DNA from: Enterobacteria phage ECP2307
Direction: 5' to 3' (one strand)
Length of the DNA: 64,000 nt
Sequence record: PP461118.1
Positions 18,455 to 20,105 of the stretch are shown here, in pieces (within the stretch, counting starts at the first letter, position 1; each line of letters opens with the position of its first letter). Below the pieces are notes generated by a model, which saw nothing but the letters and a program-made list of their open reading frames with translations, did not search any database and had not been told where the DNA came from. Position numbers and translations under genes: made by a program.

Positions 18455-18720
18455 CATCACTTAAGAGTCTTTTAAAAGGGTTTTTAAGTGATGCTCGGCC
18501 TGGCTCGGTAAGGTTTGGTCAGGTGTGGTGGGGTAAGGTTGGGTTAGGTGTGGGTAGTTAGTCTCAGCTACATTAAAATGAGACTTACCTTTTTAAAAGG
18601 TCTTTAAGAGGGTCTTTTAATGAGGTCTGGCGCGGTAGGGTCGGGTCTGGTCCGGTCGGGTATGGCATGGTGTTGTGAGGTATGGGTGGATGGTAGTAGC
18701 CACGTTAAAAATCTACCAAG
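18455..18720. repeat. two tandem ~130-bp repeat units, each with ~12 consecutive 5-bp-periodic GGT pentamers
   Basis: Pentamer tracts at ~18494..18557 and ~18624..18697 (cggta aggtt tggtc aggtg tggtg gggta aggtt gggtt aggtg...), each preceded by TTTAAAAGG-TTTTAA-GAG-C(T)CGGC and followed by AGCTACATTAAAAT-like ends. Confidence 0.7.
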
Positions 18721-18793
18721 TTTCTAAAGAGTCTTCTGTTGAGGGTTCTTTACAAACAACTTAACAATCAACTAAAGTGTGGAGCTAAATGCT

Positions 18794-19381
18794 ATGAAAC
18801 TGTTAAATATCAAAATCACTGGTACTCGTCCTTTCCTGAGCCACGCTGATACGCTGTCAGACCCATTAAACCCTCTGACAAAATATCACAAGTCTCTGTC
18901 CAGTAAACGTAAAAAGACTGACGAAGACTACGCGCTCTTAGCAGAAAGTCAACTGGTAACTTCTTGTTACTACGATGAGCAACTTGGTTTTGTTATGAAC
19001 GGTGAGATGATTGAGGCTTGTATCAAGTCTGGTGCAAAACTCAACAAACTTGGTAAGGTAATTGACCGAGCCATTATGCTGACAGATGTAGTCTTCCCAA
19101 TGACTATTAAGAACTGTCCAGCAAACCCACAAGAACTTGCTAAGAATCCAGACTTTATCTATGCTAAGTCTGTTAAGATTGGTACAGCACGAGTTATGAG
19201 TTACCGTCCAATCTTCCGTGACTGGTCTGTAGAGTTCGGTTTGATGTTCGATGAAGAGCAAATCACCAGAGAGGAACTTCTGATGGTTCTGGAAAATGCT
19301 GGCAACCTTTGTGGTGTAGGTGATTGGCGTCCACGCTTTGGTCGTTTTTCTGTAGAAGTTATTTCAGAAGGTAACGTTTAA
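18794..19381 (+). CDS. hypothetical protein (cassette gene 1)
   Basis: ORF 18779..19381 (GTG); ATG start at 18794 (MKLLNIK) with GGAG 9 nt upstream. Confidence 0.55.
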
Positions 19382-19383
19382 TT

Positions 19384-19824
19384 ATGAATACAAAAGCATT
19401 AGCAGCAAAGTTTAGTTACGGTGACACTGTATCACATTCTGAGATGGATACCTTCTTAGGTATTGTGAAGCCAACTTATCAAGGTGACATTGTTAAGTAC
19501 GAAGATGAAATGAAAGCTTATGCACTTACACGTCTAAACCGACTTGAGAAGTTTATTGAAAAGCTTCTTAAAGAAGAGAAGATTTATCTGGTTGCTTCAA
19601 TGGGTGTTGGTTATCGTGTGGTTGAACCTAAGCATCAAGCAACTATTGCAAAACGCAAAATGTCTGGTAAGATTGGTCGTGCTTTAAAGCAAGCTACTCA
19701 AGCAATTGAGAATGTGAATACTATGGCACTTAGCCATCAAGAACGTTCACGACTGATTGAACAGCAAAACCACTTAGCTGCTATGAAAGCTAACATTAAC
19801 AAGCAACGTAGAAAACCTTTCTAA
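19384..19824 (+). CDS. hypothetical protein (cassette gene 2)
   Basis: 146 aa; basic C-terminus. Confidence 0.55.
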   Translation: MNTKALAAKFSYGDTVSHSEMDTFLGIVKPTYQGDIVKYEDEMKAYALTRLNRLEKFIEKLLKEEKIYLVASMGVGYRVVEPKHQATIAKRKMSGKIGRALKQATQAIENVNTMALSHQERSRLIEQQNHLAAMKANINKQRRKPF

Positions 19825-19836
19825 GTTGACTAGGTA

Positions 19837-19858
19837 GCCTCTTCGGAGGCTCCTTTTT
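19837..19858 (+). terminator. Rho-independent terminator (plus strand)
   Basis: Hairpin GCCTC-ttcg-GAGGC followed by TCCTTTTT. Confidence 0.6.
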
Positions 19859-19859
19859 A

Positions 19860-20105
19860 AAAGGTCTTTAAACAGGTTCTTTTAATAAGGCTCGGCAATG
19901 TTCGGCATGGTCTGGTATAGTCCGGTGCTGTTCGGCGTGGTAAGGTGAGGTATGGGTAGTTAATCGGAGCTACATTAAAATTCGATTACATCACTTAAGA
20001 GTCTTCTAAGAGGATTTTTAAGTGTTGTGAGGCGAGGTACGGTCGGGTATGGCTATGTCTGGTATGGTTTGGTATGGAAGGATGGCAGTAGCCTTATAAA
20101 AAATC
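19860..20105. repeat. two further tandem ~125-bp repeat units with GGT pentamer tracts (paralogous to 18455..18720)
   Basis: Pentamer tracts at ~19889..19959 and ~20024..20090 (ctcgg caatg ttcgg catgg tctgg...; gaggt acggt cgggt atggc...); same flanking motifs as units 1-2. Confidence 0.7.

Follow-up and report, generated by a model that had tools for sequence, protein, structure and literature searches.

Evidence for a type II VIPR system with four predicted guide RNA genes in a Felix O1-like phage

The two-gene cassette studied here, which lies between blocks of 5-nt repeats in a 64-kb stretch of phage DNA (the window), belongs almost certainly to a VIPR system of type II, from the SUSP1 clade, in a Felix O1-like myovirus. 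Judged by their sequence, the four repeat units are vrRNA genes, each made of a tract of YNNGG pentamers and a conserved, structured 3' tail. VIPR (Viral Interference Programmable Repeat) is a recently reported RNA-guided DNA-recognition system, described in two bioRxiv preprints of April 2026 (10.64898/2026.04.26.720920 and 10.64898/2026.04.26.720927), and the view of an earlier note on this DNA, that the architecture was undescribed, is thereby superseded. The system itself is already known; new here are the guide-target pairs of this phage and the orphan guides of relatives lacking vipr.

As published, a VIPR system comprises a minimal RAMP protein, Vipr (RRM core, G-loop and thumb), an accessory vap gene, which in type II is vap1, and vrRNAs of 9-16 YNNGG repeats with a conserved 3' tail (10.64898/2026.04.26.720920,.720927). 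One Vipr protomer per repeat builds a right-handed filament in which GGY is flipped out and sequestered and the NN bases are presented; these pair with double-stranded DNA, every third target base being skipped, in an R-loop triplex. Binding silences transcription, and Vap1 enhances the effect. For SUSP1 the evidence comes from small-RNA sequencing, pull-down, and GFP and phage assays: its vrRNAs are separate RNAs of ~100 nt that co-purify with Vipr, repression depends on the identity of NN, and most guides of the SUSP1 clade aim at a satellite phage. The discoverers propose that VIPR is older than CRISPR (10.64898/2026.04.26.720920,.720927).

Results

Setting and anatomy of the locus

The source of the window is a Felix O1-like myovirus of the Ounavirinae. 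Its gene order is collinear with that of Felix O1, 26 tRNA genes are present, and over 18380-20200 the Escherichia phage vB_EcoM_P54 is 95% identical and wV8 and many others are 90-93% identical. The cassette locus is flanked by the DNA ligase gene on one side and by the dihydrofolate reductase and thymidylate synthase genes on the other. As shown in Table 1, four repeat units lie on the + strand, two upstream and two downstream of vipr-vap1, with start-to-start distances of 132, 1265 and 137 nt. Each opens with a 5' element, continues with a pentamer tract and closes with a 3' tail. Units A and D have a 5' element of alpha type (a hairpin), B and C one of beta type (three GGTCTTTWAA-like repeats), and the tail is of type x in A and C and of type y in B and D. 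The promoter and the terminator that the earlier note had placed around the cassette (18397-18424 and 19836-19851) were found as claimed, and the same promoter sequence precedes vrRNA1 of SUSP1.

Table 1. Features of the locus (positions in the window); vrRNA assignments are predictions
Feature	Position	Strand	Remarks
Promoter, sigma-70-type	18397..18424	+	TTGACA-16-TATACT; upstream of vrRNA A/B and vipr-vap1
Unit A	18455-18589	+	alpha-x mosaic
alpha 5' element, unit A	18455..18493	+	hairpin CATCACTTAAG...CTTAAGTGATG
vrRNA A guide tract	18494..18553	+	12 YNNGG; NN = TC CT TC AA TT CA GT GG AA TG TA GT
vrRNA A tail, x type	18554..18589	+	pseudoknot: stem 1 GTAG/CTAC, stem 2 AGTCTCA/TGAGACT, then T run
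Unit B	18590-18717	+	beta-y1 mosaic
beta 5' element, unit B	18590..18620	+	TTTTTAAAAGGTCTTTAAGAGGGTCTTTTAA, ~3 copies of GGTCTTTWAA
vrRNA B guide tract	18621..18685	+	13 YNNGG; NN = GA CT GC AG CG CT CC CG AT AT GT GA AT
vrRNA B tail, y1 type	18686..18717	+	GTGGATGGTAGTAGCCACGTTAAAAATCTACC, stem GGTAG/CTACC
vipr	18794..19381	+	195-aa RAMP-like protein with G-loop; near-identical to SUSP1 Vipr
vap1	19384..19824	+	146-aa VIPR accessory protein; near-identical to SUSP1 Vap1
Intrinsic terminator-like hairpin, 3' of vap1	19836..19860	+	AGCCTCTTCGGAGGCT + T run; hairpin 19836-19851
Unit C	19852-19989	+	beta-x mosaic
beta 5' element, unit C	19852..19885	+	
vrRNA C guide tract	19886..19955	+	14 YNNGG; NN = AA TC AA TC AT CT AT CC GC TC GT AA GA AT
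vrRNA C tail, x type	19956..19989	+	variant AATCGGA/TTCGATT, compensatory changes
Unit D	19989-20109	+	alpha-y2 mosaic
alpha 5' element, unit D	19989..20027	+	hairpin copy 2
vrRNA D guide tract	20023..20077	+	10-11 YNNGG; NN = (GT) GA GA AC CG AT TA CT AT TT AT
vrRNA D tail, y2 type	20078..20109	+	AAGGATGGCAGTAGCCTTATAAAAAATCTGCC, stem GGCAG/CTGCC
Inverted repeat, 19-bp	20110..20157	+	89% complementary; around -35 box of next promoter
Next promoter	20129-20157	+	TTGACA-17-TATTTT; downstream gene starts 20202

The inverted repeat at 20110..20157, with a T run after it, closes the locus and might act as a terminator of vrRNA D that overlaps the next promoter, or as an operator. Elsewhere in the window, short tandem repeats with periods of 8-14 nt (for example CCTTCTAACAAG x 5.9) form a dense cluster at 62900-64000, within the region that corresponds to a conserved non-coding gap of ~1.6 kb at ~12.3-13.9 kb in Felix O1.

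The pentamer tracts are confined to the four units and keep a strict phase

A recount bore out the four units of in-phase pentamers reported before. GG is kept in 44 of the 50 pentamers (A 12/12, B 12/13, C 11/14, D 9/11), a pyrimidine occupies position 1 of the YNNGG register in 50/50, and counts of GG-GG pairs have maxima at lags of 5 and 10 only. The phase of GG was thus described correctly, but the motif is GGY (GGT or GGC) and not GGT alone. When the whole 64-kb window was scanned on both strands, at least 6/10 in-phase GG occurred only in the four tracts, and no place on the - strand reached this value. First-order Markov simulations of 64 kb (n = 200) yielded at most 6/10 in-phase GG, versus 10/10 observed, and 12 in-phase GG did not arise once when tract A was shuffled 20,000 times. 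The repeat numbers of 12, 13, 14 and 11 fall inside the published VIPR range of 9-16.

GGY is conserved and NN is variable, so that the guides differ from those of SUSP1, wV8, ASO1B and other relatives. Across phages the first repeat of the beta units, T(A/G)AGG, and the last repeat, TATGG, are constant; being conserved, these terminal repeats are therefore not guide positions. Mismatches between guides and targets (see below) are concentrated in the first and last repeat.

The cassette proteins correspond to Vipr and Vap1 of SUSP1

The 195-aa protein is a member of a large family that carries no annotation (519 matches) and whose profile matches PDB 36pp_D, 'SUSP1 Vipr protein', with E = 1.3e-80. 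The protein search that had been suggested for the cassette thus led to Vipr (PDB 36pp) and Vap1 of SUSP1, to which the proteins of the window are about 97.4% (191/195 residues) and about 98.6% (145/146 residues) identical, respectively. A C-terminal G-rich loop, the G-loop, is invariant in the 36 homologues compared. The eight residues listed as holding GGY (10.64898/2026.04.26.720927), H17, E71, M72, R138, C173, D177, W178 and R179, are all found at the same positions in Vipr of the window. The blocks had been described as non-coding and functionally linked with the cassette, which agrees with vrRNA genes beside vipr-vap1. Three ideas, a TRAP-like ring site, an R-loop origin and two-tetrad G-quadruplexes, were dropped after the match to PDB 36pp. 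A genome-terminus reading was also considered, as one record starts inside a tract, and was discarded: what is annotated there as 'repeat_region' is nothing but the pentamer tracts.

General annotation resources were silent on the locus. Pfam contained no domain for either protein, PHROGs placed both only in families of unknown function, and Rfam returned nothing at the locus at gathering or permissive thresholds. In the genome papers of Felix O1, wV8 and UAB_Phi87, the only repeats described are terminal ones or direct repeats unrelated to the tracts; in the wV8 record, part of a tract is labelled 'DR_4', without a function.

When IMG/VR was scanned for six GGTNN in a row, GGYNN tracts of a complex, non-simple kind turned up in dozens of unrelated viral contigs. 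On one such contig (L037, 7400-9150, - strand), a two-gene cassette is flanked by tandem units 54-55 nt long that end in GGCAA GGCAG; the first protein of this cassette and the 195-aa protein of the window are 28% identical, which ties the repeats to the latter, and the second gene is unrelated. Such loci in unrelated contigs fit the several VIPR types that have been reported. Long GGY/NN tracts were also seen in the IMG/VR loci L039, L045, L065, L113, L114, L122, L125 and L126.

Tails and possible RNA structure

The tail sequences are conserved across relatives. A conserved 3' flank had been described for all units; this holds for A and C, which share AGCTACATTAAAAT, but the tail of B and D differs, reading GATGGYAGTAGCC...AAAAATCTRCC. 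Every pair of the x-tail pseudoknot (GTAG/CTAC and a second stem of 7 bp) is kept in each of 13 distinct tails, three of them through compensatory changes, and the stem of the y tail changes in a compensatory manner from GGTAG/CTACC to GGCAG/CTGCC; since there are only two variants per tail type, this covariation represents about one independent event each.

A TTTTAAK motif just 5' of all four tracts (18476-18493, 18606-18620, 19871-19885 and 20010-20027) is complementary to the A-rich tail loop MTTAAAA, a pairing made of A/T only and nearly invariant, for which covariation is consequently no test. The beta element of C and the y2 loop of D can also pair, at 12/13 positions. Maturation of the vrRNA 5' ends may involve the complementarity between TTTTAAK and the tail loop, as well as the alpha and beta elements; how the 5' end of the individual vrRNAs is formed is not addressed in the VIPR preprint.

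All four guides match sites in an E. coli satellite

The presumed target is an integrated satellite of ~11 kb that carries tape-measure and baseplate genes. Its baseplate gene, which resembles that of the phage, led to it, and among 5,426 complete E. coli genomes it occurs in 474 (about 9%). Nine satellite copies (106 kb) were scanned under a rule that skips one nucleotide after each NN (NNxNNx...), with the full guides and with trimmed guides from which the conserved first and last repeats had been left out. All four guides match sites in the satellite. Full-length scores were 24/24 for A and 20/26 for B, which none of 300 shuffled guides reached, 22/28 for C (reached by 1/300) and 18/22 for D (2/300). 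After trimming, the scores were 24/24, 19/22, 22/24 and 17/18 for A to D, and 0/200 shuffles reached them in each case. As a positive control, SUSP1 guides scored 21/24 and 28/32 against the satellite, above every shuffled-guide control.

The target of guide A, with the predicted sequence TCACTTTCTAACTTTCACGTAGGAAACTGTTAAGT, is non-coding and lies at the left end of the satellite in strains ZH177 (NZ_CM125652.1) and TUM1881 (NZ_CP128979.1). The perfect site, located at 3741-3775 and 12570-12604 in two of the fetched loci (L146 and L144), lies in a stretch that is unannotated, ORF-free and conserved in ~470 genomes; a sigma-70 scan around it gave chance-level matches only. The best target of guide B is in the satellite baseplate gene, at the same site in five satellites; here codon position 1 is skipped, not the wobble position, and 80% is reached only after trimming. 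Guides C and D match a small satellite gene and the small recombinase gene of the satellite, respectively, in both cases with the skipped base at the codon wobble position, and the inner 11 NN of C pair perfectly.

No self-target was detected in the window, the best self-scores being at the shuffled level, and guides A and B, searched in IMG/VR as exact patterns with the gaps included, had no match there. BLAST searches with 'idealised' targets of A-D, whose ranking was dominated by the flanks, yielded no better satellite variants than the copies already fetched. The nine satellites carry neither Vipr nor vrRNA tracts.

Many relatives keep guides without Vipr

The suggested search for the repeat unit among phages recovered the vrRNA region in 230 records. 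Vipr was found in 132 phage records, 117 of these Ounavirinae; the vipr-vap1 cassette occurs in about 117 of the 230 related records, and ~100 of the 230, Felix O1-like, have one or two vrRNA units at the site without vipr or vap1. Relatives hold one, two or four units, or none intact: Felix O1 has one unit and humlepung two, both without the cassette. In the two whole genomes checked, Felix O1 and SWJM-02, Vipr is absent genome-wide.

Loci with such orphan units include those of Felix O1 (L006/L134-L135), humlepung (L004) and SWJM-02 (L147-L148), together with L136-L142. In eight vipr-less loci one or two units are kept, with GG in 77% of pentamers, versus 84% in vipr-positive loci, and Y in almost 100%. 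Several orphan guides are intact and still match the satellite: unit 1 of SWJM-02 scores 26/28 in the tape-measure gene, and guides of BPS17W1 and humlepung score 20/24 and 19/22. The unit of Felix O1 is decayed and matches nothing. Guides without vipr are not mentioned in the VIPR preprint. That orphan vrRNAs are kept by way of Vipr acting in trans from a co-infecting phage, or compete for it, and are not fresh relics of cassette loss between alpha copies, is a speculation to which we give a rather low probability.

Compared with Felix O1, the window has an extra 1.5 kb bounded by the alpha hairpins at 18455-18493 and 19989-20027. Recombination between these two direct copies would thus delete three guides together with vipr and vap1 and leave one guide. 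The product of such a deletion would be exactly the Felix O1 arrangement.

Discussion

The closest counterpart of the locus is the type II VIPR system of SUSP1. The two share the site between the DNA ligase gene and the gp93 homologue, the promoter, the alpha and beta 5' elements, the x and y tails and the target family, an E. coli satellite; they differ in the array, which is 1 + 3 in SUSP1 and 2 + 2 in the window, and in all four guide sequences. The backbone of Class 1 CRISPR-Cas (the RAMPs Cas7, Cas5 and Cas6 on crRNA) also resembles VIPR in that a RAMP fold with G-loop and thumb oligomerises on a guide RNA, a base is flipped out periodically, and DNA recognition is programmable. However, VIPR lacks a CRISPR array, cas1/cas2 and an adaptation module, its period is 5 nt with three bases sequestered and two read, so that the guide is non-contiguous, and it is phage-encoded and silences instead of cleaving. 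In the region we found no CRISPR-like repeat family, no Rfam match and two ORFs only.

The Bacillus protein TRAP is a ring of beta-sandwich subunits that binds 11 (G/U)AG triplets spaced 2-3 nt apart, and a dozen or so conserved triplets at ~5-nt spacing, with one subunit on each, is what the tracts have in common with TRAP sites. An RNA sponge or attenuator leader, whose ~12 triplets wrap an 11-13-mer of a TRAP-type ring protein and titrate it or regulate the cassette, would suit the 11-14 repeats per tract and the position between promoter and cassette. Yet TRAP reads GAG/UAG, ignores the spacers and regulates a downstream operon, whereas here the triplet is GGY, the partner identified, a RAMP-like protein, assembles into a helical filament and not a ring, and the spacers carry information: NN match foreign DNA far above chance, which a sponge does not need. 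A pure sponge is also at odds with the NN-dependent repression seen in SUSP1. Moreover, the downstream pair of units lies 3' of the terminator and hence is no leader. The sponge is accordingly a most improbable explanation, and the earlier suggestion of a protein sponge or ~370-nt leader gives way to the separate guide RNAs of ~100 nt seen in SUSP1. The part of that suggestion that has transcribed blocks with protein-bound GGU motifs matches the SUSP1 picture of vrRNA and Vipr. Just as little credence is due to DNA-binding repeats, be they origin iterons, a partition site or a G-rich origin element that readily forms R-loops, even though the locus lies among replication genes and its G-rich strand is downstream of a strong promoter. 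Iteron-type sites are double-stranded repeats of ~17-22 bp that are bound by an initiator or ParB independently of strand; the tracts here have a period of 5 nt, half a helical turn, occur on the transcribed + strand only, and have spacers that are not conserved. Close relatives have anything from 0-1 to 4 units, some of them with none intact, which is unexpected for an essential origin, and in SUSP1 the tracts give rise to small RNAs that are recovered together with Vipr. Because the blocks are strand-specific and, as in SUSP1, would act as RNA, the proposed iteron, origin or partition site was abandoned.

The PeSL (promoter-early stem-loop) cassettes of T4-type phages pair a promoter with stem-loop modules that flank small, variable accessory cassettes, and the locus shares with them repeated regulatory modules around a small accessory cassette that varies between related phages. 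A primary role of the repeats as boundaries at which a mobile two-gene cassette of this kind recombines accords with the presence of the cassette in only about half of the related records, with the two alpha copies around the extra 1.5 kb, and with the mosaic make-up of the units (alpha-x, beta-y1, beta-x and alpha-y2). PeSLs, however, contain no guide-RNA tract, and such boundaries leave the strict YNNGG phase, the hypervariable NN and the satellite matches unexplained, so that we hold this primary role to be very unlikely, if somewhat less so than a sponge or an origin. The alpha hairpins do bound the presence and absence of the cassette, so that the earlier idea of recombination boundaries survives, but only as a side effect: cassette recombination is most plausibly a consequence of having guide genes in several copies, and not what these genes are for.

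None of the observations made here runs counter to reading the locus as a type II VIPR system, and on this reading its working can be outlined by analogy with SUSP1. The four vrRNAs would be expressed as RNAs of ~100 nt, the predicted lengths here being about 85-104 nt. A Vipr filament would form on each guide, pair in a gapped manner with satellite DNA and silence its transcription, an effect that Vap1 would enhance. During infection, the four guides would probably shut down a satellite that otherwise parasitises the phage, and the satellite so silenced would be one that shares tail genes with it.

Since this natural example and the model phage SUSP1 fall in one clade, the window does not add to the known kinds of system. 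What it contributes are four natural guide-target pairs open to direct testing, of which one is perfect; it shows a different array layout, and its comparison with relatives reveals many phages that have the guides without the protein.
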